64,000 bases of DNA, from positions 124,001 to 188,000 of the forward strand of contig QPGO01000135.1 of the NCBI GenBank assembly GCA_008632985.1. The letters are read 5' to 3'. This document shows positions 12,485 through 57,380 of this stretch, in pieces. The translations under genes and the position numbers were made by a program. This DNA is from Psammoneis japonica. Lineage: Eukaryota. Numbering within the stretch: the first letter of the stretch is position 1; each line of letters opens with the position of its first letter. A model generated the notes under the pieces. It did not search any database. It was not told the DNA's origin and saw nothing but the letters and a program-made list of their open reading frames with translations.

Positions 12485-13158
12485 TTGGACGAATGTCTCA
12501 ATGCTCAAGTGCAGCATTCACGCAGCCATGTTGTGGGCCAATCACGCAAACGCTCTAAGTTGGAGCACTTGTGTCCCATGCTGTTTGTCTCTCTGAATGC
12601 CAGACACGGTGAAGAGGATGGACAAATTGCAAAGGCTCTTTTGGACAGTGGTGCCAGTGGCACCTTGGTGTCCTCCAAGCATGCAAAAAGACCGAGACAC
12701 AAAGAGTCACCCCAAAAGACTTGGGGCACTGCCGCTGGCACATTTTCCATGTCGGCGGGCTGCAGAATGGACATGACATTTCCTGAACTGTCATCTGTGG
12801 CGGAAACCAGACAAATGGCACATGTGCGTGAAGGAGACCCAGGATGGTGTGATGTGATCATTGGAAGTGACATGCTTGAACCTCTGGGTGCAGACATTGT
12901 GTTCTCCAAACAGGCTGTTGAATGGCCCAGAGTCAATGCTGACATTCCCATGAGGAGCGTGGACTCTGCCATTGAAACATCATTTCACATCAAGGACTCT
13001 CCGGAGCTTCGCAGTGAAAGTGACCGTGTGGCGACCATGCCAGCCGCCAAGTGCAAAAAGGCCAATCTCACTGAGATTGCACATGAAACGAAAGGCCTTG
13101 ATGACATGCAGCAGAAGGAGCTGCGCGCTCTTTTGCTCAAGTGCGAAGCGCTGTTCGA
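12485..13158 (+). pseudogene. pol: Ty3/gypsy aspartic protease region
   Basis: KALLDSGAS and DVIIGSDML motifs; ends at LLKCEALFDG where an insertion begins. Confidence 0.85.
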
Positions 13159-18410: not shown

Positions 18411-18934
18411 AACGTGGCCATCTGGTGGGGCAATGATCTGAGATGCGAGCCAGCATGGCAAAATTTCCGTCACTGCAGAAAGTCGGATTTGTCCTGCGTT
18501 GTTGGTTGCCTGATGCCAACTCTGCACGCCGGCATGCAGACAACTGATGTTGTCACATGCACATTCACAATCATGTGTCATTTGTGTGTCAATCGCACCA
18601 CAGTTGTGGATGTGCACAAAGGACAGAACGATCACACAGAGTTGATCGGATGTCGAAAATTGCAAATACGATCGATTGACGATGTTGACATCTCACGTGT
18701 CAATGGCAATGGCATCCAGACAATCTGTTGTCATGAACACATTCTTCGAAAGGCCTTTTGTTTGTAGAAACAGTGCAGAAGCTTTGGGCCATTGAGAACT
18801 CGTTCGGAGAAACCAAAAATCACAGAGCAAAATTTAATCTCATAATTTTCACTTTTCATGCTTGATTCTACTTTCATTTGTGCTGGTTCGTTGAGCACAG
18901 TGCACTCTCTGCAGAACCAACATGCACTCAAGTT

Positions 18935-40500: not shown

Positions 40501-43500
40501 CGACGAGAATGTCATCATGGACACCAATGATGACGATTCTCTGTATCACCGCCTAGTTGCTCAGGTGAATGTCTCCCACAACGACATTGAGGGAGATGGG
40601 ATGCACCACCGGTACGACCCAGATGTCCACCCGGATTGTGCCAAGCGGAAACCGGTGCATGCACTGTCGACCTCGAGTCGTGCATCGACCATCACACCCA
40701 AGATGCTCTCTAAGAGGTGGAACATTGGTCTGACGGCCGCTAAGAACACCCTTAGAGTGACGACCCAGGCAGGGGTTCGCAATGTCTGCACACCATCTGA
40801 ATGGAAAATCCAGAAGAAAGCCCCGTGGCTTAAGTTCCCTGCTGTCAAGGGACGCTTCTACTCTGACCAGATGTTTTCGAAGGTTAAATTGACACATGGC
40901 AAGACAGGAGGAAGCGCATTCACCAACGAAAGAGGGCATGATGGGTTCTGTCCTTGGAAGAGGAAACAGGACCACCCGAATGCCGTCATGTCATTTGTGC
41001 ATGACGTTGGCACACCGCAAGTCCTTGTGTCGGATGGCACGCTGGAAATGGCGGAAGGCAAGACCAAGGAGATTTGCAAGGAATGCAGAACACACCAGGA
41101 GGTGTCCACCCCACACAGCCCCTGGCAGAACCTGGCTGAGGCATCCATTCGTGAGTTGAAGAAAAGAGTCCGCGTGACTCTGCGCCGGACTGGAGCTCAC
41201 AGGCGACTTTGGTCCTATAGTGCCAAATGGATGTGTGATGTCCGATGCATGATTGCGACTGGCATGTCGGATGTGGGAGGACAAGTCCCAGAAGAAGAGG
41301 TGACAGGTTCAACACCTGACATCTCGTCCCTCTCTCTCTTTGATTGGTGTCAACCTGTCTGCCATTGCATGCCTGTGGTGGAGTTCCCACACGAGAAGAA
41401 GTGCATTGGCCGTTGGCTCGGAGCAGCCGACAACTGCACTGATGACATGGCATTTGTCATTCTGCCCGAATCAGGCAGACCCATCATTTGGAAAGATGTG
41501 TGGGCCATGCCGGAGGATGACCTTAAAACTCTGGCAATCCAAACAGATCTAGCATCAGTTGATCAGGCTTTGATCGAACGACTTAACATCCCCGAACGGG
41601 ATGCCAATGCTGACTTCCCTGAACTCCCTGATGACTTCATGGACGAATGGGACGATGCTGTCAAACCCATGGAACCCAACGCTTTCAAACCAGAAGCTGA
41701 TGAGCACACCCCAGAGGGGCCAGATGAATGCCCCACAGCTCAAGTCATGTTACCACGTGGAGGCGAGCTGACTCATGCCAGGGTTGTTGCATGCAAACGA
41801 GACAGCAATGGGGTTCCTGTTGGCACTGGGAATGACAACCCTGTCCCAGACTTGAGGACACATGATGTGGAGTTTCCTGATGGATCCACTGATTCCTGTG
41901 CTGCCAACGTAATTTCAGAGAACCCATTCGCTCAGATAGACTCTGAAGGGAATGCCTGCCAGATTATGAAGGAGACAGTCGATCACCGATGTGATGCCCG
42001 TGCCGTGACGGCTGATGATGGGCACACAATGACTGAGACTGGCAGGCGCGCTCCTGGGAGGACGACTGTGCCTGCCAGATTATGGAGACAGTCGATCACC
42101 GATGTTGTGGCTGATGATGGGTGCATGACGACTAAGACTGGCAGGTGTGCTCCCAGGAGGACAACCACAGGCTGGGACCTGCAAGTCAAATGGAAGGATG
42201 GGACTACATCCTGGGTTCCCCTCAAGGATTTGAAGGAATCTAACTCAGTCGAGGTTGCTGAGCACGCTGCAGCGAACAAGGCAGCTAGTGAACCAGCTTT
42301 TAACTGGTGGGTCCGAGACGTCTTGCGTTGCAGGTCAAGGATCTTGAAGAAAGCCAAGTCGCGTCACTGGAAACGCACGCACAAGTTCCCAATTGAACTC
42401 CCGAAATCTGTTGAGGAAGCTGTGGAGATGGATGACAGAGTGGGGACTGACTTCTGGTTCAAGGCTGTCGAGAAGGAAATGCGCAACGTCATGCCTGCAT
42501 TCGAATTCCACGATGACGATGCTGTGCCAGTCGGGTGCAAACACGTTGATTGTCATGTGATCTTTGACATCAAGAGCACCGTCCAACGTGAAGCGAGGTT
42601 CGTGGCCGGAGGCCATCAAACCGATCCACCCAAGGAATCGACTTATTCCAGCATGGCATCGCGTGACAGCGTTAGGATGGCATTCACCACAGCAGCTCTG
42701 AATGACCTGGAGGTCCTGAGTGCCGACGTTCAGAGTGCCTGTTTGAATGCACACACCAAGGAGAAGTGTCACACCACTGCTGGCCTGGAATTTGGGAAGC
42801 ATGATGAAGGAAGGCCGGCAATTGTTGCCCGAGCCTTGCATGGTCTCAAGTCTTCAGGTGCAAGATTTAGGGAACACATGGCAGCCACTTTGCTTGATGC
42901 TGGGTTCGAGTCTTGTAAGGCTGACCCAGATGTCTGGATGCAAGCTGCGGTTAAGCCGGATGGCTTCAAGCACTGGGAACATGTGCACTTGTTTATGTGG
43001 ATGACTTGTTGTGCATCTCCCATGAACCTCAGAAGGTCATGGATTGTGTGAGCTCTGGGTGCACGCTCAAGGACGGAAGTGTCTGCAAGCCGGAAGAGCA
43101 CTCAGGCGCCCAGATCAGAAAGTGCCAGTTGTCTGACTCGGACGGTGGGACACACTGGGCCATGTCCTCTGACCTTTGTGTCAAAAGAACATTAGCTGAT
43201 GTTGAATTGGAGCTTAAGAAAACTGATGGGTGCCTTCCGAAGAAGGCGTTGACGCCCTTGAGCTCGGGACACAGGCCTGAACTGGATGGCTCACCTGAGT
43301 TGACATGCCAAAACGGCCAACTGCTGCCAAGGCCTTGTTGGTGTGCTACGATGGGTGGTTGAACTAGGGCGAGTGGACATTTTTGTCGCTGTCTTGCTCA
43401 TGTCCTCCTGCTTGGCAGCACCACAAGTTGGACACCTGGACGAGGTGCTCCACATCTTCGTGCACTTGAAGGCTCGCTCTAAGTCTGCGCCAGTGTTCGA

Positions 43501-44763
43501 CGACACTGAGCCTGTCTTTGACGAGAGTCGTTTTACCAAGTGCGATTGGGAAGAACATTGCCCTGGTGCAGCTGAACCAATGCTGCCGAATGTGCCAGAA
43601 GCATGTGGGAACAGCATGACCACCACTTGCTTTGTCGATGCTGATCACGCTGGATGCCGTGTGACGTGCAGGTCCCACACTGGGATCCTGACATTCATTC
43701 AACGAGCGCCCATCTTGTGCTGCTCTAAATGGCAGAACACCGTAGAGTCATCCACTTTTGGGTTGGAGTTCGTGGTGATGAAGACCACAGTGGAGCAAAT
43801 TGAAGCCTTGCGTTGCAAGCTTCGAATGCTCGGAATCCCCATGGATGGGGCCACCAATGTTTTCTGCGACAATGAGGCTGTCTTCATTAACTCAACCAAG
43901 CTGGAGTCTACGTTGAAGAAGAAGCACAATGCGATTGCCCATCACAGGACTTGTGAGGCACAAGCCGCTGGAACAGTGTGCATTGCTTGGGAAGACGCAC
44001 GCACAAATTTAGCGGACGCACTAACTAAGTTGTTGCCTGGACTGAAGCTCCGGGAAATCACAAGTCACATCCTGTGGTGAGTCCCAAAAGGGGACAAACC
44101 GAACAGGTTTGCCGTGCAGGTGTGGCTTTTCCCATCCCCAACATGAAAATGCCACCCTGGAATGGGGCAGCATCAGGTGGCATTTGTCTGTCAATCTGGC
44201 CCGAGCGGAGCTAGTGTCAGTTCGAGGGGACTGAACAAATGCTGATGTGCTGTCACGAACATGGGCAGTTTATGTGCCATTGGCTGTCAGTCCACTTTCA
44301 CTTATTCAGTGGTCCCAGTGGCGAAACATCTCACAATTCTAGAACCTGTTGATGCTGTTCAACAGTCTGTCTTGTCTTACACCCAATTCTTAGCCATCAT
44401 GGTGGCATTTATTCAGTTTTTCGGATCGCGTCGTATGTCGCGCACGTGCATTTCTACGTGTGACATTCTACGAAATTGTTTCTACTCCCTGTTTTGCGAA
44501 GCCAAAGGCTTTCTATTTTCAACATTTATGAGAGTGAAAATGCGCTGGGGTACATTCTTTAATGTCTGTAGAATGCACCCGGGCAAACTGTCAATGACGC
44601 ACGTCAAGCATGAAGGAGGAGATGTGTTCGTAAAATTGCCTCTTTTTCTGTTGGCGATCATTTGTATTTTCATTGCAGCACAAATTTACTGCAGAGCTCG
44701 CACGTAGAATTCTACGGGCCCCAATGTCACACGGAGTCCCACCTGCTGGGACTGGAACCCGTC
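37507..44763 (+). mobile_element. MITE split by the copia B plus insertion (37507-37566 and 44416-44763)
   Basis: Left terminus gacgtgttcgagc at 37507, right terminus ctggaacccgtc at 44763; TSD caaa at 37503-37506 and 44764-44767. Confidence 0.88.
37567..44415 (+). mobile_element. Decayed full-length Ty1/copia element (family B, plus copy)
   Basis: 184-bp LTRs 37567-37750 and 44232-44415; TSD gttt; gag from 38297, PR DLDSHVDAC, IN-RT ORF 39929-43051, RH ending 44080; PPT gagggga. Confidence 0.92.
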
Positions 44764-45040
44764 CAAAGCTGGAAATGTGACATCGGTTTCTGAACAATTT
44801 AATCTGATGAAAAGGCATGACAGAAATTGAAGGCAAATGGCAAGAATTCAAACAATAACTCCTTACTGCTGTCTAAATAGCAGATGAGTCTCCGCTCAGA
44901 GACCGTTGCAGGAGCCGAAAGACGTGTAAGTCGGTATAATCGGGCTACTGTCATTATTCTTGTGAGCCTTGTGGCTCGAAAGCAAACTACATCGCGCGTG
45001 AACGCGCGGAACTAAAGCACACAAAACTGTGCACGGTAAA

Positions 45041-47614
45041 CTAAACAGCGCGCGATGCTTCGCGCGCACCTAAATCCTGTTCAAATCCTGTCACTCCCCA
45101 GTTTGCTTGAGGAGCCACAGAAACAGATTCGACTTCGGATGGAATGAAGTTCCAGAACATGAGGGGGCGGAGAAGGTCCCAGATTTGGGAGTAACCCCAA
45201 TGCTTGCTGAGAATGTCAGCAGGGTTGCGGGAGCCTTCGATGAAGTGGAACTCAAGGTAACCAGAGGCAATTGCCTCACGCACACGGTGGAACGATAGTG
45301 CGGTGTGTCGCTTGTGTAACTTGGAGTGCGGGATGGTGGCACTGTCTACAACCGACTTGTTGTCACCGAACATGTAACTAACGTTACGGATCGGGACGCC
45401 AAGGTGGCGCAGGGTGATGCGCAGGTCGACAATCTGCTCAACACAAGTCCTTGCGGCAACAAATTCAGACCCGTAGGTCGCAGTCTCCATGGTGGCTTGT
45501 TTCTTAGAGAACCAATCAGCCGGGAATTTGTTGAGGAAGTGGAGCATTCCCATGACAGAGCGTCCGGTGAGCATGCAATGGTACAAGTTTGCATCGACGT
45601 AGTGGGTGGTAGTGACGAACTTGCCAAGGGGCGGTGGAGCGTCCTTCGGGATCATCTCTTCTGCTTCACCATGCACGGAATGCATCCATTCACAGGCCGG
45701 AGCAGGGAGATCCGAATAGTCGGGCTCTTCCGTGCGAACGCGGAGAGCACCGTGTCGCATCTTGGAGAGGTGCCCACAGACGCGTTTGGCACGATCCAAG
45801 TGGCCTTGACGAGGCGCAGCTCGGAAGCTAGAGAGTGACATGACGGCCGTGGCAATGTCAATTCGACCAAGGGACACTGCCCATTGGAGTGAACCAACAA
45901 GAGACTGGAACTTGTGAATGCCATCGGGTCCCAGCAGTTCGGAAGTGTCCAGTTCGGGGTGGTCACCCTTCTCTAGAGGTGACAGGGCGTTGGTGGTAGG
46001 TTTCTCCCCAAACAGTCGGGCACAGCTGTCGACCATGCGCTCGATGTACTTGCGCGGAGACAGGCACAAGGTTCCGTCGGGTTCCCGGGAAAAGTCGCAA
46101 CCCAGATGGAACTCAATGGGTCCCGTGCCCTTGAGCTTGAACTTGTGCTTTTCCGTGAGAGTGTCGACGAAAGATTGAGGGTCCTTCATGGCAATGGCGA
46201 GGTCATCCACATAAACGGCAATGTATTCACAGTGGTCGCCGTTCCTGCGCATCCAAATGTCGGGTTCGGCGCGGCAGGGGAAGAAGCCTTCAGCTCGCAG
46301 GCAGTCAGCGAAGCGCTCGTGCCAGCGGAGACCGGAGCTGCGCAGTCCATGCAGTGCCTTGTGGATGACAAGGATGTGTCCTTCGAGTTTGCCGAACTCG
46401 GGTCCAGCCACAATGTAAAGCTTCTCCTTGGTGGTGGCTTCAAGGCAGGCATTGCCAATGTCGGTGGCCCATGTCTCCAGCTCGTTGAGTTCGGCCAGGA
46501 AAATCATCAGCCGAAGGCCACGGAGGGAGACTACTCCGGAGCAGACACTGTCGACAGGTACGTCCGTGAGGTGCCCGTCGGCTACGAGTCGTGCCTTGTG
46601 GCGACCGTCGTGTTTCACGTCGCACACTGGGTGCACTCGGATCTTCTTGTGTCCCGCAGGAGGAGTGGAAGACTTGAAGGGCCCGCAGTCATGGAAGACT
46701 TCGTATTCGTCGAGTTGGTCCATCTCGAGATTGGTTGCGTCTCCCCACTTGCGGTTGCCGTTGCGTTCGTCTAGTGACATGGCGTGTTTGTAGTTCCGGG
46801 GAACTTCGCACCCACACTTGTAGCGAGGTGCAGTGCGGAAGGAGCGAAGCTTGGCTTGGTTGGCCATGCGAAATAGCTTCTTTTGGCGCCTCGCGATGGT
46901 GCGGAACCGCTTCCAGCCATCCGTGTCGAGGAGTCCGTTCTCTCGTGCATAGATGGCACAGGTGACGGGGTCGTCCTTGGCGATGATGGCAAGAGGCTCG
47001 GACGTGATCTCCCCACTTTCCCATTCAAGCATGATGTTGTAGCTGGAGCCTTTCCAGGTTGGGTCATGAGGCTTCAGAGGTCCTTCGTGTGACACGATGC
47101 GTCGAAATTTCCAAACAGTGGTGTCTTCGTCTTCTTGCTCAATGTGATTCATGATGTCATTGCAGGCAAGGACTTCCTCGTATTCGTCATTGTTGACAGA
47201 GCAGACGAACTTAGTGAGCTCGGGATTGCCGTTCACTTTCCATTCGTGGTCTTCGACGGCCTTGACGATGCGAGCTCTGTGGCGTTGTCCGTCCTCTTGT
47301 GGCTGCATGAGGAAGGTGCGTCCAATGATGTCTTGCGGATCGAAAACTGGCATCTTGGGTGTCCTGATCTCCCCATCAGGAGAGTCGACGGGGTTGTCGT
47401 CATGGCGAGATTTGATGATGGGTTCAGGTGGCTCCCCATCAGGAGGATCAAGACGCAGGTTTCGAACGGCAGGATCGGGGGTAGCGGAGCGGACGTTGGA
47501 CCGGCAGAGGATCTTCTGAGTCTCGTCAGATAGAATCTTGAAGGTCATCTGGTGGCCGACGTGCTCAGCAATGCCAACGAAGCGTCCACGCAACTCACGG
47601 GATTCAGAGGCCAA
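45041..47614 (-). CDS. pol: pol C-terminal part: integrase tail, reverse transcriptase (YVDD) and RNase H
   Basis: 857-aa frame with HKARLVADG, DIGNACLEA, YIAVYVDDL, YVDANL, GDNKSV, NPADILSK; joined to the upstream ORF by a 1-nt frameshift near 47608. Confidence 0.9.
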   Translation of the reverse strand: MASESRELRGRFVGIAEHVGHQMTFKILSDETQKILCRSNVRSATPDPAVRNLRLDPPDGEPPEPIIKSRHDDNPVDSPDGEIRTPKMPVFDPQDIIGRTFLMQPQEDGQRHRARIVKAVEDHEWKVNGNPELTKFVCSVNNDEYEEVLACNDIMNHIEQEDEDTTVWKFRRIVSHEGPLKPHDPTWKGSSYNIMLEWESGEITSEPLAIIAKDDPVTCAIYARENGLLDTDGWKRFRTIARRQKKLFRMANQAKLRSFRTAPRYKCGCEVPRNYKHAMSLDERNGNRKWGDATNLEMDQLDEYEVFHDCGPFKSSTPPAGHKKIRVHPVCDVKHDGRHKARLVADGHLTDVPVDSVCSGVVSLRGLRLMIFLAELNELETWATDIGNACLEATTKEKLYIVAGPEFGKLEGHILVIHKALHGLRSSGLRWHERFADCLRAEGFFPCRAEPDIWMRRNGDHCEYIAVYVDDLAIAMKDPQSFVDTLTEKHKFKLKGTGPIEFHLGCDFSREPDGTLCLSPRKYIERMVDSCARLFGEKPTTNALSPLEKGDHPELDTSELLGPDGIHKFQSLVGSLQWAVSLGRIDIATAVMSLSSFRAAPRQGHLDRAKRVCGHLSKMRHGALRVRTEEPDYSDLPAPACEWMHSVHGEAEEMIPKDAPPPLGKFVTTTHYVDANLYHCMLTGRSVMGMLHFLNKFPADWFSKKQATMETATYGSEFVAARTCVEQIVDLRITLRHLGVPIRNVSYMFGDNKSVVDSATIPHSKLHKRHTALSFHRVREAIASGYLEFHFIEGSRNPADILSKHWGYSQIWDLLRPLMFWNFIPSEVESVSVAPQANWGVTGFEQDLGAREASRAV

Positions 47615-50600
47615 TCGGAGTCATCGAGGTGGAAGTACACGGGTTCCCACCAGTGAAAGCGAAGCAATGGGCTGATGTCCGGGGTGGAGCCAGTGAGAGT
47701 CTCGAGGGGCGTGCGCCAGTGGAGACGTGGGGACGCTGTATGGTTGAGCATGAAGCACACGTACATGAGCGCCAGCAGCCATGTATGGGCGGGCGAACCA
47801 AAACGATCCATGACAGTGTTCGCCATGCGCTTCACGGTCTGGTGTCGACGCTCGGCAAAGTTTTGGTGTTGCTGGTGAGGCTCACTTTGCCAGCTAGAGA
47901 TGAAGAGGGCGCGCAGGATCCCGAGCACTTTGTTGCTGATCTCAACTTGAGCACGGTCGCTAATGAGTTTGGATGGGGCACCACGTTCACGGATCTGATC
48001 CTCGAGTGTGTTGACAAACTCTTTGTCCGTCTTAGTGCCGTAGACGTCAGTGACGGTAGACTCGGTGCCAACAAACAGTTGGGCGCTGGTGCAACCAGAG
48101 TCGACGGCCGGGGTGTCGGCATAAACGGTGTCAGTGGCGACAGGCTCGTTGCGGCGGTGCACATTAAGGGCGGGGTTGGGTGATTTGTAGGCCTTGCGAA
48201 GGTGTGTACCGGCGGGCATGCGGGCGTACTGCGTGGTGCAGTCAAAAGTACGACGGACCGTATCGGCAGGCAGGAAGCCAAAGCAAGGCCGAAGAGACTC
48301 GAAGGGGGGGTCCTTGGGCTGTACAGTGCGCTCCGGAGGTGGAACGTCATCGCCCTGGGGGCCAATCGCATGCAGATGACACTCGTAGAACACGTCGTCG
48401 TTCGGAATGAGGTGATCATCGAGGGCGGACGCGTGATCGGCAGACAAGGAAGCGGACATGATGGTCTCGTTGACAACGACACGATGACGGTAGTTGCCGT
48501 ATTCGTCAAATAGGTTGGCAGTGGGATCGTCCTGTAGGTCAGAGATCGCGTCGTACCACTGGTCGTCGTCAGTGACAGAGTGATCGAGGACGGAAGGGTC
48601 CCATGTGTCATCACCGGTGAGGATGACATGGGGCAGGGTGTCCCATTCGGCGTCATTGTAAGGTCGCATGGCAACATAGGGCAGGCCAGCCTTGATGTCA
48701 ATGGGGATGACATAGCCATCAGGAGTGGCAATACGTTGCAAGCCGTTGGGCACCTTGACAGAGCGATCGTTGACATCCTGTTTGTACCATTCGAGCTGGC
48801 CGCAGGAATGGATGGTCTTGCCCTTGCCCGTGTATGCGCACTGATGGAGGATGGCGATGACGGGACCACGCTGGGTCTCAATAACGGCACCAGCGGTGAC
48901 AATGGGGATGTCCACCAATTGATGATCGTCAATGCCCTGAACGTCGACTTGGCGAGAGGTGCGTGCAATGACGCGAACGTCGTCGCCAGCAATGCCGCCG
49001 TTGGCCCCACGATCGACTAGAGCGCCAGTGCGTGTGGAGCGATGAGCAGAGGCAGAGTAAATGACATTGTGGTTGTCAACGCGGCGGCAAGTGCGGCCGT
49101 TAAGTTCCATGTCATCTGCAGAAGCTGGCGGGGTAGAGGAAGCGGCGGATGGCCCCGGTCGACTGGCATTGGGGGCTTGGTTAGGAGACAACAGACGTTG
49201 CAGATCACCGGGTGGCAGTGGCTTGCGCTTGGTGAGGTGCGCCAGGATGGGATTATCCGAAGTGGCGTCCACATGTGGAGCGGAGTCACCAGAGTCAGCA
49301 GGAGTCGTGTTGGACAAGTTGACATCACCGTCACTCCCAAGGCGTTGGTCGTGAAGGTTGGCCGTAACAGACTCATGGTAGTTGCTGGCTCGCGGGTTGC
49401 GGGGAGGTGGACGAGAATGCTCAAGGATGATCGCCTTGGAGGAATCGGGCAACGAATCCCAGAGCCGTTGGTGGTCGGGAGGGAGACGTCTCCATTGGAC
49501 ACCGGTGAGGCTGGGACCGCGGGTGCAGGCAGCATTGGCTTGGAGGACGTCAACGTCGCTGTCAATGTCGTAGAACACATCGTCGGACGGTTCCTCGGAG
49601 TAGACGTCGTGTGCGCATATGGCGCGTCGGGGAGCTCGAGGTGTCGTCTTGGGTTGAAACGTGCTGTCGCACTGAGCTGCCGCGGAGAGGAGCAAGCCAC
49701 AGCATTGATCGTATGTGAGGCTCTTGCCACTCTGCGTACGATGCTGATCAGCTTGGTTCTTGACAGCACGGAGTTCCTCGACAGGGTGCACGGCATTCTC
49801 GAGCATGACGCGCTTCTGTCCTTCAGAGAAGTGGTCACTGGCCGGGATGAGTGCCTCGCACTTGCGCAACTGATCTTGCCAATGAAGGATGAACCCGTGG
49901 GTCGGACCTTTCCAAGTGCCATCACCAAGACGCGCGGTGGTGAGGTACGTGAGCAGGGTGGAGGACTCGATAGATGCGCGGGTGGAGGCAAGCGCGCACT
50001 CAGACAAGGAGCGGCAGACGGTCTGTGCGTCAGAAGACCCCACATTTTCGCGAATGAGAGCCTTGCCCTTGTCGGTGAGAAGGATGCGTTCGAAGACGGC
50101 GAACATGTACTTTTGCTGTTCAGCAAAGAGCAGTTTGTCTTCGGGGCTGGTCGGTTTGTACGACGAGTCTAGAATGCACTCGACGTCTTGGGCACGGGCT
50201 TGTGCCACAAGTGAGGTGTGCCAAGTGTGCCACTGCTTGTCGGATTTGAGAGCCGTGAAAGCGGTGGGATCACGCTTGATGCCTCGCTTGAAGTCCCGCA
50301 CCGGGTCGCGTGCCTTGGTCGGGTTGGTGACATGTGGAGGTGCAAGGGGTGAGCTGCCGATGGACACAGAAGACATGTAGTCGGGGCTGAGGCGGCAGGC
50401 AAGGAACTCGTCATGCGTGAACAAAGAGGAGTCGTTGGCAACGTCAAGACCTTTGTGTGCTTTGACAATGTACAGACTGACTAGTGCTGCTAACATGTTC
50501 TTATAACCACGGGGCAAAGGGATTACATTAGTGCCGTTGTCGTACTCAAGCGAGTCGATTTGGGACGGTATGAACGTGAATAGTTCCTGATGCGAGTCCG

Positions 50601-50709
50601 TGCCGTCTTGGGCCAAAGCCAAACGAAGAGGACTCCCAGCACCTTGGGCAAGCACGGTTCCAACCACGTGCTCGAAACCATCGGTTTGTTGCTGACGAGT
50701 GAGAACCAT
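47545..50709 (-). CDS. gag-pol: gag-protease-integrase polyprotein part
   Basis: ATG at 50709 (MVLTRQQQ); FKRGIKRD gag motif, LVDRGANGG protease, ATDTVY/LISDRAQ/QNFAER integrase. Confidence 0.9.
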   Translation of the reverse strand: MVLTRQQQTDGFEHVVGTVLAQGAGSPLRLALAQDGTDSHQELFTFIPSQIDSLEYDNGTNVIPLPRGYKNMLAALVSLYIVKAHKGLDVANDSSLFTHDEFLACRLSPDYMSSVSIGSSPLAPPHVTNPTKARDPVRDFKRGIKRDPTAFTALKSDKQWHTWHTSLVAQARAQDVECILDSSYKPTSPEDKLLFAEQQKYMFAVFERILLTDKGKALIRENVGSSDAQTVCRSLSECALASTRASIESSTLLTYLTTARLGDGTWKGPTHGFILHWQDQLRKCEALIPASDHFSEGQKRVMLENAVHPVEELRAVKNQADQHRTQSGKSLTYDQCCGLLLSAAAQCDSTFQPKTTPRAPRRAICAHDVYSEEPSDDVFYDIDSDVDVLQANAACTRGPSLTGVQWRRLPPDHQRLWDSLPDSSKAIILEHSRPPPRNPRASNYHESVTANLHDQRLGSDGDVNLSNTTPADSGDSAPHVDATSDNPILAHLTKRKPLPPGDLQRLLSPNQAPNASRPGPSAASSTPPASADDMELNGRTCRRVDNHNVIYSASAHRSTRTGALVDRGANGGIAGDDVRVIARTSRQVDVQGIDDHQLVDIPIVTAGAVIETQRGPVIAILHQCAYTGKGKTIHSCGQLEWYKQDVNDRSVKVPNGLQRIATPDGYVIPIDIKAGLPYVAMRPYNDAEWDTLPHVILTGDDTWDPSVLDHSVTDDDQWYDAISDLQDDPTANLFDEYGNYRHRVVVNETIMSASLSADHASALDDHLIPNDDVFYECHLHAIGPQGDDVPPPERTVQPKDPPFESLRPCFGFLPADTVRRTFDCTTQYARMPAGTHLRKAYKSPNPALNVHRRNEPVATDTVYADTPAVDSGCTSAQLFVGTESTVTDVYGTKTDKEFVNTLEDQIRERGAPSKLISDRAQVEISNKVLGILRALFISSWQSEPHQQHQNFAERRHQTVKRMANTVMDRFGSPAHTWLLALMYVCFMLNHTASPRLHWRTPLETLTGSTPDISPLLRFHWWEPVYFHLDDSDWPLNPVSCVDASLALLSTSATR

Positions 50710-51630
50710 GGTAGACAAAAGTGGTGTCAGGACAATCAATTCTGGTTGGGAAGCGAAGGTAGACTCGAAACTTGGGTGAGAACAGACTTGACTTGAAACA
50801 GACTTGACTTGAAATCTTGAACTATCTTAAAATCAGAAGTCGCCGGGCTTTGTCATCCCGTTCGTTGTTAAGTGCTAAACTTCCTATCCGGTCCGTAGAG
50901 TTGTGCCGGCACGTCCGAACCCGCAGCTAGTGGCGCTTTGGGTTGCTTATGAGCGGAGTAGCGGGTTGTAAACCCCTGCAGGTAAGCTGACTAGAGGTGG
51001 ACAAGACCCCCGAACCGTTCTTATTTTATATCGGTTGGATTTCCCGATCAGGCTGGCCAGTTGACGTAGGCGTTAGGCGCTGTGGACGAACGAACAAACG
51101 CGGGAAAGCACCCTCGCCCCAACGTAGGCTGTAATCACGGCTGCTTGCTCTCACAGTCGTCCTCGTGGACCTAGTAGAACTGTAGAGCACCAGTAGTCCG
51201 GGGTAGATCAGGTACAATGGACTCGGTGTGCTTGTAGAGTGGTAGCAAAACCGTAGTCCGAAGAGTGGGTACAGGTTCTTGGCCGTGAAGATATGTATAT
51301 ATATATGTCTTCAGCGACGAAGATCCCCTGAATATGTAGGGTTCTTGACCGTTAACCGATGAATAGGTATATCAAGGGATGAGGATCAAGGATAGACTTG
51401 GATATGACCGTTGAATGTATGTCTTCAGCGATCAAAGGTAGTATAATCAATCCAGATATCCAGCGGTAAGGAGACTTGACGGTGACGTTAACTTCCTGCC
51501 GATGCCCTGGTATTGAATGCGCGTAGACTTGCTGATGTATGTAGAATATATACGGAGGTCCACGTAGAATTGAAATAGCGTCGTTGGTAAATCAACGACG
51601 ACGATGGCGGTTGCTCAATGGGTTGACAAT

Positions 51631-51647
51631 GCGCAAGACTGTTAATC
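51631..51647 (-). promoter_or_regulatory. Primer binding site, probably for a 5' half tRNA-Asn(GTT)
   Basis: Directly inside the 5' LTR; the plus strand reads gcg caaga ct GTT aa tc, an anticodon arm. Confidence 0.65.
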
Positions 51648-51929
51648 TGACAGAAATTGAAGGCAAATGGCAAGAATTCAAACAATAACTCCTTACTGCT
51701 GTCTAAATGGCAGATGAGTCTCCGCTCAGAGACCGTTACAGGAGCCGAAAGACGTGTAAGTCGGTATAATCGGGCTACTGTTATTATTCTTGTGAGCCTT
51801 GTGGCTCGAAAGCAAACTACATCGCGCGTGAACGCGTGGAACTAAAGCACACAAAACTGTGCACGGTAAACTAAACAGCGCGCGACACTTCGCGCGCACC
51901 TAAATCCTGTTCAAATCCTGTCAAGGCAA

Positions 51930-52850
51930 CTGCAATGTGCTCAACCAACATGTGTTGTGGGGGATGAAAAGGTCCATTTCACCAGAGTCGGCAGTGGGAA
52001 TCAGATGTGCCATGCCTGCACACACGAGCATGATGGGACAGCTTTGACTTTCAACAGATTTGAGGTGACTCCCAGCTCAAAGCCAATCAACTGGGGGGCC
52101 CAGGTTGCCAGAGCATGCCCATCATTCTGGATCATGCCTCTTGGTTCCCGCCATGCCTGCAATGGCGTGAGATCTCTAGAGGACACCAGATGAACACATG
52201 CGTGGGGCACCTGGATCAGGTGCTGAATGTTTGTGCCATCTGTCTGCAGTGGAATGAGGTCATTCTCATCAGCTGGTTGTTGGCTGCAGCGGGTGCTGCT
52301 TGGGGCCCAGCCAGGTTGAATGGGGCACTGGGCAATTCCAAAATGTTGAAGTTGCCTGGCAACACACACCCCTGGGAATGAAACACACATCCATCCCATG
52401 GTGAGATGGCAACGGGGTCACAAATGTGCACTGATGGCATGCAAGCAACCCTGCATCCTGTCATGGTTCACCAAGGCCAAGAAAACCCTGGGTGCCACGT
52501 TGCCAAGGTCGACAATGTGCTTGGGCAATGTGGCAGAGGGCACTGGAGTGGCTCCATTGGTGAAGTGGTGGTTGAGGAGGTCTGCGCACTTGCCTTCCAA
52601 ATGGCACCTTTGGCCATCCATTTCTAGTGGCGGGTCTTGGGTGGTGCTAGCAGCGCACCTCTGGCAGCAACTGGGGGGACAGCAGCCACAACAACATGGC
52701 ACATGTTGCTCTCTTGGCATCAAATTGCAGCTGCTGCTGCAGCCTTGGCAGGCAGCAATGAGTTGCATCGAAGAATGCCATTGGCACTCCAATCTGTTCA
52801 AGGGTGTGGGTGACATGGAGAGCATCTGTCCCTCCCTCTCGCAGCTGAAA
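51930..52850 (-). pseudogene. Probable ORF1 remnant of a tyrosine-recombinase retroelement
   Basis: VPHACVHLVSSRDLTPLQAWREPRGMIQNDG resembles DIRS/Ngaro ORF1; recall only. Confidence 0.4.
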
Positions 52851-53240
52851 TGAGCCCTCAGAAATTTTCTTGGTTTACTTGGGAGGAAGATGTCAAGACA
52901 ATTGTTCATGCAGCATGTGCACATCTCTTGATGTGCGTTCAAGAAGATGCACATGTGACTCTGTCTGTCATTCTCTGTTGTTCTTTTGACATCTGCTGTT
53001 CTCTGGTCATGAGCACAATGTGACATGCACCTCCTCCAAAGAATCACATCAGGGAGAGAAAGGAATGAGATGCCGCGCATTTGTGGTCTCAAGGCAGCTT
53101 CCTTTTTGGATGATGACAGTGCCATTGGACTTTGTTTCATGCATTTCACGTGAGCCAAGTTGGTGCAAGGTGAGTTTGGATCAATGAGGGTTGTCATCAT
53201 GGAGAGAAACAAGGTCTCCTACTTTGGAGTCATGGTTGAG

Positions 53241-54199
53241 TCACCAAGAGTTCTCACATGCATCATCTGCTTGAGCTTGTTGTTGGTGGCAAGCACAGAT
53301 GGTTGGCCAGTGGATGTTGCATTGTGAGGGAAGGATCATGTCACATCCAAAAGCAAGTTGGCCAGCAGAGGCTTGCATGACAGTGTGCACCATCGAATTT
53401 GCTGCCCAAGTTGCCAAGGCTGTTGTGGCATTCCACGGATTCAGTTGATTGAACGCATCAGGATCATCAACTTGTTGGGCCTGTGTGCAGCTCCACAAAA
53501 CATTGTGGGTCCATTCAAGCAGTGAATTTGATTGTGGGTTCTGTGCTGTCACAGGCTTGGACTTGTTCCCATGAGAAACCAGTGGTTCTTGAAATTCAAC
53601 GCCTGCAAATTCCGCACTGTTGCCATGTGTGAAACAGACCAGGTGCAGAAAATTGCATGACCATGCTTGGTTGAATGCTCTGGCTGTTTCCAGAGCTGAA
53701 ACTGTGGAAATTTGTTCCGCTCCAAAACAGCAAGCAGCCATGTCCACCATTGCAAGGGCAGTCAGTGCCAAACTTTGGTGGTTGGCACTGGAGCCAGCAG
53801 CAAAGGCAATTGTTCTAATGGTGTGGACTGCTGCCTGTGACCTGGGGTCAATCTGAACGGCTTGCATGTCCTTGAGAGGTGTCTTTCCACACACTCTGTG
53901 GCTCTCTTTTGACCTCAGACAGGTCTGGCATTGACCCATCTTGGTCTTGACATCTCGGGTCAAACCCTGCCAAGAATGGCAGTGCTGTCTGAAGGTCTTT
54001 TCCATCCGTTGGATGCCTGGATGGCACAAATTGACATGACACCAATTTAACAAAGGTGCTTGTAGAGCTGCAGGAATGACAATCTTGTCCTTAAAAGGGC
54101 TGAACAAAGTTGTCCATCCTGCACCATGCAACTGCAGTCGGACAATTTCTTCCAACTCAGGTCGGTTTGAGCAAGTTGCAACACTTCTTTTGTGCACAG
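53241..54199 (-). pseudogene. Ty3/gypsy integrase remnant
   Basis: IVIP...WCHVNLCHPG...CQTC zinc finger, GNSAEF, NPQSNSLLE, VHTVMQASAGQLAFG. Confidence 0.85.
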
Positions 54200-57100
54200 T
54201 GACAGAAATTGAAGATGACTGGGTGGAAGAAAACAACAACTCCTTGCTGCTGTCTAAATGGCAGATGAGTCTCCATGCAGAGACTGTTGCAGGAGCCGAA
54301 AGACTGGTGTCGTTGATGTCGGCACTGCTGTCATCATTCTTGTGAGCTGTGTGGCTCAAAAGCAAACCACATTGCGCAACGAGCACGGAACCAAGAGCAC
54401 ACACAATTGCATGTGACAAACTAAAATCTTGTTCACATCCTGTCACTCCCCAGTTTGCTTGAGGGGTCAACAGCAACAGATGCAAGGTCAGATTGGTTGA
54501 AAGCCTCGGGATCGAAGTTCCAAAACATCAGAGGATGAAGGAGGTTCCAGACTTGGGAGTAACCCCAATGCTTGCTGAGGATGTCAGCTGGGTTGCAGGA
54601 ACCTTTGATGAAATGAAACTCAAGGAAACCGGAAGCAATCGCCTCACACACATGATGGAATGAGAGGGCAGTGTAACTTGGATTGTGGGATGGCAGCACT
54701 GTCCACAACTGACTTGTTGTCCCCAAACATGCAACATGTTTCACGAATGGGGATGCCAAGGTAATGCAAAGCAATGCATGGATCAATGATCTGCTCAACG
54801 CATGTCCTTGTGGCAACAAACTCAGATCCATGCGCAGCAGTCTTGACTGTTGCTTGTTTCTTGGAGAACCAATCAGCTGGGAACTTGTTGAGAAAATGGA
54901 GGATGCCAGTGACAGAGCATCCAGTGAGCATGCAATGGAACAAGTTTGTGTCAATGTAGTGTGTTGTGGTGATGAACTTGCCAAGCAGCTCTTCTGCCTC
55001 CCATGCACCGATTGGGCCCAGTCATGCACGGGCTTGGGAAGGTCTGAATGGTCGGGCTCTTTGGTGTGCACTTGGAGGGCACCATGATGCATCTTGGAGA
55101 GGAATCCGCAGATGCATTTGGCATGGTCTGGGTGGCCTTGATGGGGTGCTGCATGGAAGCCAGACAGAGACATGACAGCCAAAGTGGTGTCAATGCAATC
55201 AATGGATGCGGCCCATTGCAGGGAACCAACAAAGGATTGGAATTGGTGGATGCCCTCCAGTTTGAGTAATTTGGAGGTGTTGAGCTCAGGGTGGTCTCCC
55301 TTGTCAAGGGGGGAAAGCACATCAGTGCAGGGCTTTTCCCCAAAGAGGCATGCACAGCTGTCAACCATGCGCTCAATGTGCTTGTGAGGAGCAAGGCACA
55401 GGGTGCCGTCTGGATCATGGGTGAAGTCACAACCAAGATGGAACTGCAATGGTCCAGTGCCCTTGAGCATGAACTTGTGCTTCTCCATGAGAGTGTCTGC
55501 AAAAGCCTGGGGTTCCTTCATGGCAAAGGCCAGGTCGTCCACATGCACTGCCATGCACTCGCAGTGGTCACCATTCCCACACAGCCAGATGTCGGGTTTG
55601 GCTTTGCACGGGAAAAAACTTCAGCATGCAAGCAATTGGCAAAGTGTTCATGTCATCTGAGGCCAGAGCTGCGGAGTCCGTGTGAGGCCTTGTGGATGAC
55701 AAGGGTGTGTCCTTCCAGCTCGCCAAGTTCAGGGCCTGCTGCAATGTGCAGCTTCTCCTTGATCACAGCTTTGAGACAGGCGTTCCCAATGTCGGCAGCC
55801 CAAGTCTCTAGTTTGTTGAGTTTGGCCAGGAAGATCATCATTCGCAGGCCACAGAGAGACACTGCTCCAGAATGGACACTGTCGACAGGTGCATCTGTGA
55901 GGTGTCCATTGGCAACAAGCCTTGCTTTGTGCCGTTCGTCATGTTTGACGTCACAGACGAGATGCTCCCAAATCTTCTTGTGTCCTGGTGGAGCACTGGA
56001 ATCCTTGCAATGTCCACAGTTGTGGAAGACCTTTTGCTCATCAAGCTGAGTCATCTTGAGGTCCGTTGCATCTCCCCACTTGCGGTTGCCGTTGCGCTCA
56101 TTGAGGGCCAAGGCATGCTTGCAGTCCTGGGGCACTTCACACCCGCACTTGCAGCGTGGTGCAGTGCAAAAGGAGCCCAACTTGGCTTGATTGGCCATGC
56201 GAAACAGCTTCTTCTGATGCAGAGCTATCTTGCGGAAGCATTTCCAGCTGTCGGTCTTGAGCAAACCGTGTTTGCGTGCGCAAATGGCACATGTGACCAC
56301 ATGTGATGGGGTCGTCCTTGGCAATGATGGCAAGGGGTTCAGATGTGATCTCCCCATTCTCCCATTCAAGCATGACGTTGTAGCTTGAGCTTTTCCAAGA
56401 GGGATCATGGGGTCACAGTGGTCCTTCATGCGATGCGATGCATCGGAACTTTCAGAGGGCAGTGTCTTTGTCTTCTTGCTTGATGTGGTGCATGATGTCA
56501 TTGTGGGCCAGGACTTTCTCATGTTCATCATTGTTGATGGAGCAAATGAACTTGACCAGTTTGGGTTTGTCTCTGATTTTCCAGTCATGGTCCTCAATGG
56601 CTTTGATGATGCAAGCTCTGTGGCATTGTCTGTCTTCTTGTGGCTTCATGAGGAAGGTGTGTCCGATGATGTCCTTGGGTTAAAGACTGGCATTTTGGGC
56701 ATCCTGATTGCCTCCCCCTCTGATGAATCCGGTGAATCCTCGGAGTTGTGTCAGGATTTGATGATGGGTTCAGCAAATTCCTTTTCTGGAGGATCAAGAT
56801 GCAGGTTGGGAGTGGATGTTTCACAGGCGGAATGCACGTTCAAGCGGCAGAGAATCTTCTGAGTGTCATCAAAAAGAATCTTGAATGTCATGTGATGACC
56901 AACGTGTTTGGCAACACCAAGGAAGCCACCATGCAACTCGCGTGATTCAGATGGCCAGTCAGAGTCATTGAGGTGGCAGCACATGGGTTCCCACCATTGA
57001 AAGTGCAGGAGCAGGCTGATGTTGTGGGTAGAGCCGGACAGCACCTTGGTGGGGTTACACCAGCGAAGCTTGGCAGACGCTGTGTGGTTGAGCACAAACA

Positions 57101-57380
57101 CATGCACATCATGGCCAGCAGCCATGTGCAGCCTGGAGATCCAAAGCAATCCATGATGGTGTTGGCCATGGTCTTCACAGTTTGGTGGCAGTGTTCAGCA
57201 AAATTCTGGTGCTGTTGGTGGGGCTCGCTTTGCCAACTGGAGATGAAGAGGGCACGAAGGATGCCGAGAACTTTGTTGCTGATCTCAATCTGAGCACGGT
57301 GGCTGATGAGCTTGGACGGGGCACCATGATTGCGGACAATGTTGTCTTCGAGCATGTTGACAAATTCCTTGTCAATTTTG
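54200..57380 (-). mobile_element. Old 5'-truncated relative of copia family A (IN-RT-RH and 3' LTR 54200-54445)
   Basis: Collinear with 45094-48020; same PPT; RT motif decayed to AVHVDDL. Confidence 0.9.

Follow-up and report, generated by a model that had tools for sequence, protein, structure and literature searches.

A young copia element and its older relatives point to a TpA to TpG/CpA mutation process acting on integrated mobile DNA in Psammoneis japonica

The 64-kb window of the P. japonica genome (the whole stretch of DNA analysed here) contains a full-length Ty1/copia element on the minus strand at 44818-51923, nested in older transposon remains. Its two LTRs are direct repeats that end in TG..CA and agree at 270 of 276 positions, and the element is bounded on either side by TGCCT, a target duplication of 5 bp without mismatch, as the sequence-only reading of this DNA had claimed. 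The coordinates given in that reading, 45041-50709, cover the reading frames alone, from the ATG to the final stop. The features of the element and of two relatives in the window are listed in Table 1.

Table 1. Position and composition of the young copia element and its relatives in the window (o/e, observed over expected).
Feature	Position	Strand	Remarks
Target-site duplication, upstream copy	51924-51928	-	TGCCT on the element's strand
5' LTR	51648-51923	-	276 nt, TG..CA ends; TpA o/e 0.79, CpG o/e 1.26
Untranslated leader	50710-51647	-	5' LTR to ATG; ATAT-rich run intact near 51300
Frame 1	47545-50709	-	gag, protease, integrase-like part; ATG at 50709; TpA o/e 0.41, CpG o/e 0.99
Overlap of frames 1 and 2	47545-47620	-	76 nt; site of the frame change in the young copia
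Frame 2	45041-47620	-	reverse transcriptase and RNase H; TpA o/e 0.30, CpG o/e 0.92; stop at 45041
Purine-rich tract	45094-45108	-	abuts 3' LTR upstream; putative polypurine tract by position, read from the sequence
3' LTR	44818-45093	-	276 nt; TpA o/e 0.76, CpG o/e 1.29
Target-site duplication, downstream copy	44813-44817	-	
Old truncated relative	54200-57373	-	corresponds to element positions 3897-7106 at 74% identity; 3' LTR at 54200-54409
Solo LTR, same family	60044-60319	+	95% identical; own 5-bp duplication CTCAG

The open frames noted earlier are real, but there are two of them instead of one, and all the peptides quoted from them were found in these two minus-strand frames. Frame 2 matches the Pfam family RVT_2, the copia-type reverse transcriptase (E 6.7e-26; score 91.8 bits, cut-off 31.6), which the element has in common with diatom-type Ty1/copia. 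Frame 1, open from stop to stop over 47545-50826, gave no match to rve or any other integrase family in the Pfam search at E <= 0.01, and its putative integrase part was assigned because the frame aligns with full-length homologues in their N-terminal portions. The young copia is also frameshifted, since most other copies of the family have one base more in the frame overlap, at place 47608. This extra base accounts for a depth of 9767.7 of 10314.9 in run X1 and is present in X2-X4 too, the four runs coming from one sample that is possibly the assembly's own. The protein is 65-71% identical to many metagenome and ENA homologues, and the closest Atlas clusters that have a taxon label belong to Bacillariophyta, the label being based on two members per cluster.

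To describe the state of the coding region, we aligned it with 35 homologues, chosen by hand from the best 120 of 2770 matches, and treated as conserved the 21 columns with tyrosine in at least 80% of the 35. The young copia has tyrosine at 10 of these columns, cysteine at 5, histidine at 4 and phenylalanine at 2, and the codons at the lost tyrosines are TGY or CAY. Change to Cys or His at 9 of 21 columns contrasts with 24 changes at the 400 other conserved columns, where 376 residues are kept (Fisher p = 6e-6). All 34 conserved arginines are retained, 32 of them in CGN codons, and the difference between the tyrosine loss and the loss of CGN arginine (0/32) has p = 7e-5. Thus the statement that many conserved tyrosines are changed stands for these nine, while three residues quoted in its support do not lie at tyrosine columns: the homologue majority has Phe at the positions of the Cys in GCEVP and in VCDVK, and the His in ERRHQTV falls in a column without any conserved residue. 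The Leu to Pro change pointed out in the same reading is present as a CCA codon at residue 331. Sixty-three metagenome loci of this family were compared, of which 62 have at most one Cys or His at the tyrosine columns, and only decay of the CpG type was seen in 62 of these 63 related loci from other hosts; one of the loci keeps 18/18 tyrosines, yet 12 of its 30 arginine columns are changed (L042). The TpA o/e of the related loci has a median of 0.71, against 0.30 in the young copia.

Analysis of the dinucleotide composition indicates that the young element stands out from its surroundings. Its internal part has a TpA o/e of 0.49 and a CpG o/e of 0.97 and its LTRs have a TpA o/e of 0.76-0.79 and a CpG o/e of about 1.27, in agreement with the abundant CpG reported before. 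The remaining 57 kb of the window has a TpA o/e of 0.12 with TG/CA at about 1.6; in the bins from 1 to 18 kb TpA falls to 0.03-0.15 and CpG stands at 0.53-0.73, and the flank at 43313-44812 is intermediate (TpA 0.35, CpG 0.68). The old relative (measured over 54200-57380) has indeed lost nearly all TpA and most CpG, the o/e values being 0.07 and 0.35, and at the 21 tyrosine columns it shows 1 Tyr, 7 Cys and 5 His. Of the young copy's 219 CG sites, 39 are kept and 134 appear as TG or CA in the old copy, and CpG o/e drops further to 0.13 in the lowest bin of the window. Comparison of duplicated segments of old DNA gave 219 differences, of which 134 are exchanges between TA, CG, TG and CA, including 59 doubles of TG against CA.

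The LTRs provide a comparison in which the direction of change can be read. The six differing positions of the young LTR pair comprise three sites at which TA faces TG or CA, an adjacent pair with TG facing CA, and one CG facing CA; the TG-against-CA site could have descended from CG instead of TA. We used as outgroup the solo LTR, which sits within an older copia remnant (59630-61037). At all three TA sites it has the third state, so that TA, TG and CA are all present among the three copies, and TA is therefore taken as ancestral. Scored against the three-copy majority LTR, the two young LTRs lost TA at 3/32, CG at 1/40 and changed at 0/264 other sites, small counts with 3-5 events between them, and the solo LTR lost TA at 6/16, CG at 2-3/20 and changed at 1/131 other sites. 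When the three copies are pooled, TA loss (9/48) exceeds CG loss (3-4/60) with p = 0.03-0.08 and change at other sites (1/395) with p = 9e-9. Losses are far advanced in two old LTRs, at 54200-54409 (TA 12/14, CG 11/14) and near 61k (TA 11/12, CG 14/14). Nearly every difference among the LTRs is a change of TA or CG to TG/CA, from which it follows that the process acts after integration, on chromosomal DNA and on both strands. Two claims of the sequence-only reading are thereby upheld: both dinucleotides end as TG/CA, and TpA is lost faster than CpG, as seen in the LTR counts, in the tyrosine and arginine codons and in the 1-18 kb bins. Per site, TpA is lost at roughly 2-4 times the rate at which CpG decays. 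CpG decay is a second, slower process in the window, with CG changing to TG/CA with age as would be expected if the DNA were methylated. Both strands are affected in similar proportion, as shown by Cys 5 and His 4 in the young copia, CA 21 and TG 15 in the alignment of the young with the old copy, and T>C 106 and A>G 88 across the family.

Loss of TpA is uneven along the young element. The o/e is 0.30-0.41 in the coding region, 1.14 in the leader (50827-51647, 821 nt) and about 0.77 in the LTRs, which a uniform process after insertion does not predict, and loss of tyrosine codons exceeds the loss of LTR TA since insertion (9/21 against 3/32, p = 0.007). Both contrasts would suit editing of a retrotransposition intermediate, by an ADAR-like enzyme on RNA or a deaminase on single-stranded minus-strand cDNA, fixed at integration; APOBEC editing of retroviral cDNA likewise spares LTR-proximal parts. 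APOBEC and ADAR enzymes make deaminase-type transitions with a neighbour preference, 5' U for ADAR, and cripple retroelements. They act, however, on a single strand, be it RNA or cDNA, giving one sense-strand product and leaving the LTRs identical, whereas the young copia carries both products, and its LTRs, which share one template and must match at integration, differ at TpA sites. Accumulation of the same changes in place is also seen in the solo LTR and in duplicated old DNA, and the leader belongs to the RNA, yet it is spared. Editing before integration, of either the ADAR or the APOBEC type, is therefore very unlikely and was rejected.

Much of the TpA loss in the coding region was probably inherited from the source lineage instead, because the LTRs have lost only 3/32 TA, the leader is nearly untouched, the family majority shares the Cys at codon 360 and TpA is depleted at codon junctions. 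At synonymous codon junctions of the young copia TpA o/e is 0.20, against 0.41 in tyrosine codons, with baselines in relatives of 0.75 and 0.71. The unevenness may then be explained by this inheritance together with selection on cis-acting parts, the codon-position test behind this account being marginal (8 of 26, p = 0.05). Accordingly, the description of the element as caught mid-conversion is appropriate for some TA loss after insertion, seen in the LTRs, and less so for the coding region.

Variation within the family was examined in the four runs, where A>G or T>C occurs at 194 of 286 variant places in X1. Among the 40 variant rows listed of 294, there are 21 in which the window has TA and other copies have CA or TG, 5 show the reverse, and only 1 is a CG of the window lost elsewhere; 21 of the 27 listed A>G or T>C rows lie in TA. 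The sequence-only reading had asked whether other copies share the Cys and His residues, which could be read at 2 of the 9 codons: codon 360 is Cys in about 72% of the family depth, with A as second base in about 28%, and codon 739 is a tyrosine codon in about 49%. The Cys majority at codon 360 and the great abundance of the family (3613 of 14324 pieces in X1 are at least 99% alike) could mean that Cys and His are the normal functional state of the family in this host, and that the copy is intact and active with nothing converted. Nevertheless, part of the family keeps the tyrosine codon at 739 and A as second base of codon 360, three of the lost tyrosines are invariant in 35/35 homologues, the young copy is frameshifted while most copies are not, and the old copy is down to 1 of 21 tyrosines at the same columns, all of which makes a functional role of these residues highly improbable.

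Nanopore assemblies can contain systematic miscalls at modified bases, and the library type of runs X1-X4 is not on record, so that errors of assembly or base calling at modified TpA in long reads might be thought to produce TG/CA. The 186 TpA of the young element are nevertheless called normally beside depleted flanks, TA, TG and CA variants occur at the same places in contigs of four runs with high word depth, CpG decay co-varies with apparent age, and an unrelated metagenome contig (L018) has the same Tyr to His/Cys pattern with its arginines intact. In addition, the comparable mutations in Bigelowiella natans were identified with Illumina data (Mettrop et al., bioRxiv 10.64898/2026.01.13.699255). 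Miscalling is thus hardly conceivable as the source of the pattern.

The best explanation as a whole, to which we give a probability of about three in four, is that this is a young copy of a very high-copy copia family in a host with a TpA to TpG/CpA mutation process. In this process TpA in integrated mobile DNA becomes TpG or CpA by A:T to G:C transitions. The sequence comparisons show directly that its substrate is double-stranded chromosomal DNA after integration, with both strands treated alike and at a rate far above that of all other sites except CpG, and that old DNA is left nearly TpA-free and rich in TG/CA. The young copia is already defective, through its frameshift and the loss of nine conserved tyrosines; a minority of the tyrosine changes probably arose after insertion, and the remainder would come from a still-transposing source lineage under the same pressure, which intact copies may have complemented in trans.

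A process with this signature was described in mutation-accumulation lines of B. natans, in which integrated viral DNA undergoes TpA-only hypermutation (Mettrop et al., bioRxiv 10.64898/2026.01.13.699255). According to the main text of that preprint, 230 of 231 mutations in two integrated viral regions are A>G or T>C, all of them on TpA, at a de novo rate about 1000 times the background, one target being single-copy, and the spectrum outside these regions is the normal AT-biased one. The young copia resembles this system in the change of TpA to TpG/CpA on both strands of integrated foreign DNA, in low TpA with high CpA and TpG, and in that changes fall mostly on TpA (9 TA, 3-4 CG and 1 other event in the LTRs). 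Reverse transcriptase and DDE endonuclease domains are also over-represented among the TpA-depleted coding sequences of B. natans. The two cases differ in that the preprint follows de novo mutations in two viral insertions and finds depletion in 124 clusters of at least three consecutive 1-kb windows, while our data come from LTR pairs, copy ages and family variation and show a whole 57-kb stretch depleted. The terms LTR, copia, retrotransposon, CpG, context and flanking do not occur in its main text, to which the supplements may add, so that this text does not cover how the rate compares with CpG decay, which flanks are preferred or what follows for stop codons. The process in the window appears to be of the same kind, a kinship read solely from the mutation signature. 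The only earlier report of such hypermutation is this preprint of 2026, on two viral insertions in one alga; the window offers an independent sequence-level case in which the same process would erode LTR retrotransposons, with the LTR pair and the solo LTR as a built-in clock that places the changes after integration and ahead of CpG decay.

The extent of the depletion bears on whether mobile DNA is targeted. If TpA to TG/CA were the dominant neutral mutation genome-wide, the copia would stand out only as newly inserted, and this fits the depletion of all 57 kb outside the element, including stretches without a recognisable transposon domain, as well as the sharp TpA step at the element's right end (0.06 in the flank against 0.96 in LTR plus leader), as if depletion tracked residence time. 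No host gene was recognised anywhere in the 64-kb window, which therefore cannot decide between targeting and a genome-wide bias. In B. natans, on the other hand, the process is confined to the two integrated viral regions (10.64898/2026.01.13.699255), and we consider an untargeted process unlikely.

The chemistry could alternatively start from thymine. If silenced transposons carried 5-hydroxymethyluracil (5hmU), or a further oxidised or glycosylated form, in place of thymine at TpA, this base might mispair with G at replication and cause the transitions, much as 5-methylcytosine underlies the decay of CpG, and because TpA is self-complementary, a T-directed lesion fits the symmetric TG/CA equally well. 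However, most assays find normal pairing of 5hmU with A. Dinoflagellate transposons show enrichment of 5hmU, which contributes to their silencing (PMC11572971), and the same paper cites an old report that in Crypthecodinium cohnii the T of TA and TC is replaced preferentially. A base-resolution 5hmU map of Breviolum minutum is reported to show no sequence motif (PMC11071213), and a preference for TA and TC predicts loss of TpC, whereas TC here has an o/e of 1.06. The element's closest relatives with a taxon label are diatom-type, and no dinoflagellate spliced-leader motif was found in the window, a weak test in a window without genes. Taken together, a modified thymine seems quite unlikely.

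For the preferred TpA to TpG/CpA process, the likeliest enzyme, at slightly less than even odds, would be a DNA adenine deaminase preferring a 5' T. ADAT2/TadA enzymes have such a 5' T(U) preference, acting at U33-A34 of tRNA. The surviving NTAN sites in old DNA, which also reflect newly made TpA and the starting composition, have o/e values of 0.32 for TTAA, 0.20 for CTAG, 0.04 for GTAC, 0.02 for ATAC and 0.00 for ATAT, and this suggests that RTAY is the most susceptible context and YTAR the least. Together with the strand symmetry and with hot sites at which three LTR copies were changed independently of one another, this preference provides leads to the enzyme.

Repeat-induced point mutation (RIP) of fungi changes C to T, mostly at CpA, creating TpA and lowering GC. 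Both RIP and the TpA process consist of dinucleotide-specific transitions that ruin transposon copies in place and reshape dinucleotide content, but they run in opposite directions, since here TpA is destroyed and GC raised. RIP was rejected as the cause in the window, where old DNA has a TpA o/e of 0.12 and TA changes to CA/TG. CpG decay through deamination of 5-methylcytosine has the same TG/CA end products and the same age dependence, but starts from CG and not from TA. We tentatively suggest that the TpA process could be a defence opposite to RIP, in which an enzyme would recognise integrated mobile DNA, convert TpA to TpG/CpA on both strands with RTAY preference and faster than methyl-CpG decay, and clear TpA from entire regions rich in transposons. 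It might exist in more than one lineage (the P. japonica genome of the window, B. natans and the host of L018), with high-copy retrotransposon lineages surviving by rapid turnover and trans-complementation, and long false frames as a by-product.

In such genomes, LTR-divergence dating overestimates age unless TA and CG sites are masked, and Tyr to Cys/His "substitutions" in transposon proteins represent decay and not adaptation. The same holds for reading frames. Because TpA loss never turns a sense codon into a stop, dead copies keep long open frames, and the open frames that had been taken as a sign of youth are weak evidence of it. Nor do such frames show that genes are intact, since TAA and TAG are depleted: the window contains 1503 TGA, 220 TAA and 197 TAG codons, and 51 frames of at least 200 amino acids in 64 kb.

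The element that the sequence-only reading had placed at 45041-50709 is only the coding part of a larger minus-strand Ty1/copia element, with the 5 bases TGCCT in the flanking DNA at either end. The coding span, the target-site duplication and the LTRs stood, and the element proved to be wider, with two frames and a frameshift between them, offset in phase by exactly 1 base. Most other copies of the family have an extra base in the 76-nt frame overlap (9767.7 of 10314.9 of the word depth of family pieces in sequence run X1, and likewise in runs X2-X4, all contig sets from one sample of one study), which indicates that a single gag-pol frame is normal for the family and that the young element is frameshifted. 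The 630-residue C-terminal part of frame 2 has 2770 database relatives; among the matches listed, the best ones at full coverage reach 65-71% identity and belong to metagenome and ENA contigs. Diatom-type copia make up the labelled Atlas clusters closest to the young element, and a protein-level search of the phage collection gave no match.

Outside the young element the window consists of transposon debris, and no host gene was recognised within its 64 kb. Of 24 further long frames analysed with Pfam, 3 had domains, all of transposon type (protease, RT/RNase H, RVT_2), and 21 had none. Across the window, TG and CA are over-represented (o/e about 1.6). The nearly complete TpA loss and extensive CpG loss claimed for the old truncated relative were confirmed by its composition. 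The 211-nt direct repeats around the second copia may be its LTRs, and the young element was inserted just past the right-hand one. The solo LTR interrupts an older copia remnant (59630-61037) within its RNase H region. The gypsy-type remnants lie in TpA-depleted DNA and their translations are rich in Cys, His and Trp. The tandem duplications also lie in old TpA-depleted DNA, and the differences between their copies are rich in TG-versus-CA doubles.

Features of the window and their dinucleotide composition (o/e, observed/expected)
Feature	Position (strand)	Description	TpA o/e	CpG o/e
Whole window			0.16	0.51
Window minus young element			0.12	0.43
Young element, LTRs only	44818-45093, 51648-51923 (-)	276 nt each, TG start, CA end	0.76-0.79	about 1.27
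Young element, leader	inside LTR pair	821 nt and short upstream stretch		
Young element, LTR + leader			0.96	1.10
Young element, frame 1	ATG at 50709 to 47545 (-)			
Young element, frame 2	47620 to 45041 (-)	RVT_2, E 6.7e-26		
Young element, coding frames			0.30 and 0.41	0.92 and 0.99
Left flank	43313-44812		0.35	0.68
Right flank	51929-53428		0.06	0.19
Old truncated copy	54200-57373 (-)	same family, 74% identical; o/e over 54200-57380	0.07	0.35
Solo LTR	60044-60319 (+)	same family as young element, 95% identical; CTCAG duplication at 60039-60043 and 60320-60324		
Second copia family	39926-43048 (+)	blastn: no match to young element	0.21	0.58
Direct repeats flanking second copia	37550-37760, 44215-44425	211 nt, 80% identical, 6665 nt apart		
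Gypsy-type remnants	17669-18433 (+), 53241-54527 (-), 12443-13195 (+)	RT_RNaseH_2 E 7e-17, Integrase_H2C2 E 2e-8, gag aspartyl protease E 7e-5		
Tandem or near-tandem duplications	8689-10724, 22614-24804, 17026-17814, 28352-29130, 1-1852	periods about 1546, 1110, 390, 479, 1552 nt; identity 86-98%		

Both LTRs of one element are identical when it integrates. Those of the young element now differ at 6 positions: three differences are TA versus TG or CA, a further two adjacent positions read TG versus CA and may descend from TA or CG, and one is CG versus CA. With the solo LTR as outgroup, the third state was found at all 3 unambiguous TA sites, and since each of these sites thereby shows TA, TG and CA among the LTRs, the ancestor can only have been TA. 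That the solo LTR's 6 hits among 16 sites cover all three, with a chance of about 0.04 by simple arithmetic, hints at hot sites. Changes were then scored against the three-copy majority.

Sites lost or changed in LTR copies of the family
Copy	TA lost	CG lost	Changes at other sites
Two young LTRs	3/32	1/40	0/264
Solo LTR	6/16	2-3/20	1/131
Old LTR 54200-54409	12/14	11/14	12/109
Old LTR near 61k	11/12	14/14	16/105

Pooling the three younger copies, TA was lost at 9/48 sites versus 3-4/60 for CG (p = 0.03-0.08) and 1/395 for other sites (p = 9e-9). Old duplicated segments were compared in 11 pairs: exchanges among TA, CG, TG and CA make up 134 of the 219 differences, 59 of them TG-versus-CA doubles, the trace left when a single site decays separately in each copy. 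The alignment of the young element with the old copy showed 5 of 53 TA sites retained (36 now TG or CA), and 39 of 219 CG sites retained (134 now TG or CA). With so few aligned TA sites left, the old copy was dropped as an outgroup for the coding region. These comparisons show a TpA-specific process that acts on chromosomal DNA after integration, in addition to the usual CpG decay. Where TpA in window bins is down to 0.03-0.15, CpG is still 0.53-0.73, which agrees with a TpA-first order, as does the intermediate composition of the left flank. Together with the LTR counts, these data support the earlier proposal that TpA declines faster than CpG and that both end as TG/CA; the ratio of the two log-declines is roughly 2-4. 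At about 1.1e-5 per TpA per generation, derived for Bigelowiella natans from 211 mutations, 6169 TpA and 3132 generations, a TA loss of 3/32 would correspond to about 9000 generations, an illustration only, as the rate is borrowed across organisms.

The two products occur in similar numbers on the sense strand: Cys 5 versus His 4 at the altered tyrosines of the window copy, CA 21 versus TG 15 in the young-old alignment, and T>C 106 versus A>G 88 among family variants. Along with the LTR differences, this argues against editing of RNA or single-stranded cDNA as the main source, and ADAR/APOBEC editing of intermediates thus fails both the strand test and the LTR test. GC-biased gene conversion was ruled out because other A:T sites are static (0/264 and 1/131 other sites changed in the young and solo LTRs), and selection against UpA in RNA because it cannot give the o/e values of 0.00-0.04 that some NTAN classes have in dead non-coding DNA. 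Thymine modification is possible but less likely: 5hmU is described on dinoflagellate transposons (PMC11572971), but no 5hmU motif was found in Breviolum (PMC11071213), and TpC is not depleted in the window (TC o/e 1.06). The dinoflagellate spliced-leader motif had 0 matches at up to 3 mismatches, which is uninformative in a gene-free window.

To the coding region we aligned 35 homologues, chosen among the 120 matches listed. The 21 conserved tyrosine columns read Tyr 10, Cys 5, His 4 and Phe 2 in the window copy, the altered codons now being TGY and CAY, whereas 376 of 400 other conserved columns are intact (p = 6e-6 for the excess). The tyrosine loss reported from the sequence is thus borne out overall and, judged from this alignment, goes far beyond what chance would give. 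The same type of change also produced one Leu to Pro (CCA), one Ile to Met (ATG) and, behind codons with a final T, two Ile to Val. Conserved arginines are intact at 34/34 columns, 32 of them CGN, so that 9 of 21 tyrosines were lost versus 0 of 32 CGN arginines hit by CpG decay (p = 7e-5).

The family of the young element is very abundant and has young members: run X1 alone has 14324 family pieces, 3613 of them at least 99% alike. Among the 286 variant places in X1, A>G or T>C accounts for 194, C>T or G>A for 70 and transversions for 22. Contexts were tallied on 40 of 294 variant rows: the window has TA versus CA/TG elsewhere in 21, CA/TG versus TA in 5, CA/TG versus CG in 6 and CG versus CA in 1, with other contexts in 7. 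From these same rows, 2 of the 9 Tyr-loss codons were readable in other copies, and 2 of the 5 reverse rows (window CA/TG, TA elsewhere) fall on them. At 45406 (codon 739, base 1) the Tyr codon is present at 49% of depth; at 46542 (codon 360, base 2) the A-restoring letter is at 28% and the Cys state at about 72%. Tyrosine is therefore retained in other copies and the losses are polymorphic, and at least one loss is widespread and not private to the young element. At 45296, 45997, 48122, 48500, 48883 and 49379 the window has TA where CA or TG stands in 90-100% of the depth of the family. The young element seems to belong to a minor, less eroded subfamily; alternatively, TpA losses may become fixed in the masters behind most copies.

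The young LTRs lost 3/32 of their TA sites versus 9/21 Tyr codons (p = 0.007), and the leader keeps a TpA o/e of 1.14. An ATAT-rich, microsatellite-like run at about 51290-51330 (-) in the leader is intact, although no class has been removed more completely from old DNA than ATAT (o/e 0.00); the young element and other copies differ there by a TA unit at 51295. Since LTRs and leader show no matching loss, the coding-region loss is probably not all post-insertion, and the proposed "mid-conversion" state finds only partial support. Against a coding TpA baseline in relatives of median 0.71 (range 0.24-1.13, 63 loci), the RT frame of the window copy has 0.41 for Tyr-type TA at codon positions 1-2 (relatives' median 0.71), 0.33 for NTA at positions 2-3 (0.69) and 0.20 for TA that spans two codons, with T at position 3 and A at position 1 (0.75). 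This junction TA, where changes are mostly silent, is the most depleted class, although the difference is marginal (8/26, p = 0.05). We infer that the source lineage was under TpA pressure for many transposition cycles, that silent TpA would have been purged first, that some Tyr losses would have been carried along, perhaps with trans help from intact copies, and that a small private layer of changes may have been added after insertion. As an alternative to inheritance, it is possible that the coding part of the element is specifically targeted.

Surviving NTAN in 57 kb of old DNA differ in o/e by class: TTAA 0.32, CTAA 0.20, CTAG 0.20, GTAA 0.15, CTAC 0.15, ATAA 0.12, ATAG 0.04, GTAC 0.04 and ATAC 0.02; the range over all classes in the young element is 0.36-0.79. 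By simple arithmetic, a multiplicative model with one weight per 5' flank fits most classes, with susceptibility falling in the order A, G, C, T and ATAA about 3x above its prediction. This preference gives a lead but falls short of a measured specificity, as these are survivor data in which the bases before T and after A are inseparable. Checked at all three codon positions, TA to TG/CA never turns a sense codon into a stop, and CpG decay does so only via CGA to TGA. Window stops are TGA 1503, TAA 220 and TAG 197, and 51 stop-free frames of at least 200 aa were counted on all strands, among them a 1041-aa frame in the second copia despite its decay. These frames often overlap on opposite strands. 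Open frames in the window consequently say little about integrity, and gene finders would overcall here.

RIP papers aside, our literature search for the same process elsewhere matched only bioRxiv 10.64898/2026.01.13.699255. According to its main text, 231 of 302 nuclear mutations in mutation-accumulation lines of B. natans fall inside two integrated viral regions, 230 of these 231 are A>G or T>C, all stated to be on TpA, and the rate is about 6e-7 per site per generation, in some lines only. The same text reports reverse transcriptase and DDE domains enriched among TpA-depleted coding sequences, proposes an ADAT2-like adenine deaminase and has no mention of LTR, copia, retrotransposon, CpG or sequence context. 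The signature is of the same kind as in the window, whereas fungal RIP runs in the opposite direction. The window is a new case of a phenomenon with a single, very recent description, and adds proof from LTRs that the process acts on retrotransposons after integration, the TpA-versus-CpG rate order, the flank preference and the stop-codon effect.

Our study also adds a second, environmental instance. As a control from other hosts, 62 of 63 related metagenome loci carry no more than one Cys or His among the Tyr columns, and several show plain CpG decay in place of Tyr loss; one of these (L042) retains Tyr at 18/18 columns, and at 12 of its 30 Arg columns Cys, His, Gln or Trp has replaced Arg. 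Only locus L018 resembles the window copy, with Tyr 11, Cys 1 and His 5 at 20 columns and Arg retained at 27/29. This relative, on a 2561-nt contig (match 2-1975, 67% protein identity), has the same signature, with TpA o/e 0.31, CpG 0.82 and codon-junction TA 0.19. A further locus, L029, is close to it in composition (TpA 0.24, CpG 0.82), yet retains Tyr at 12/14 columns.
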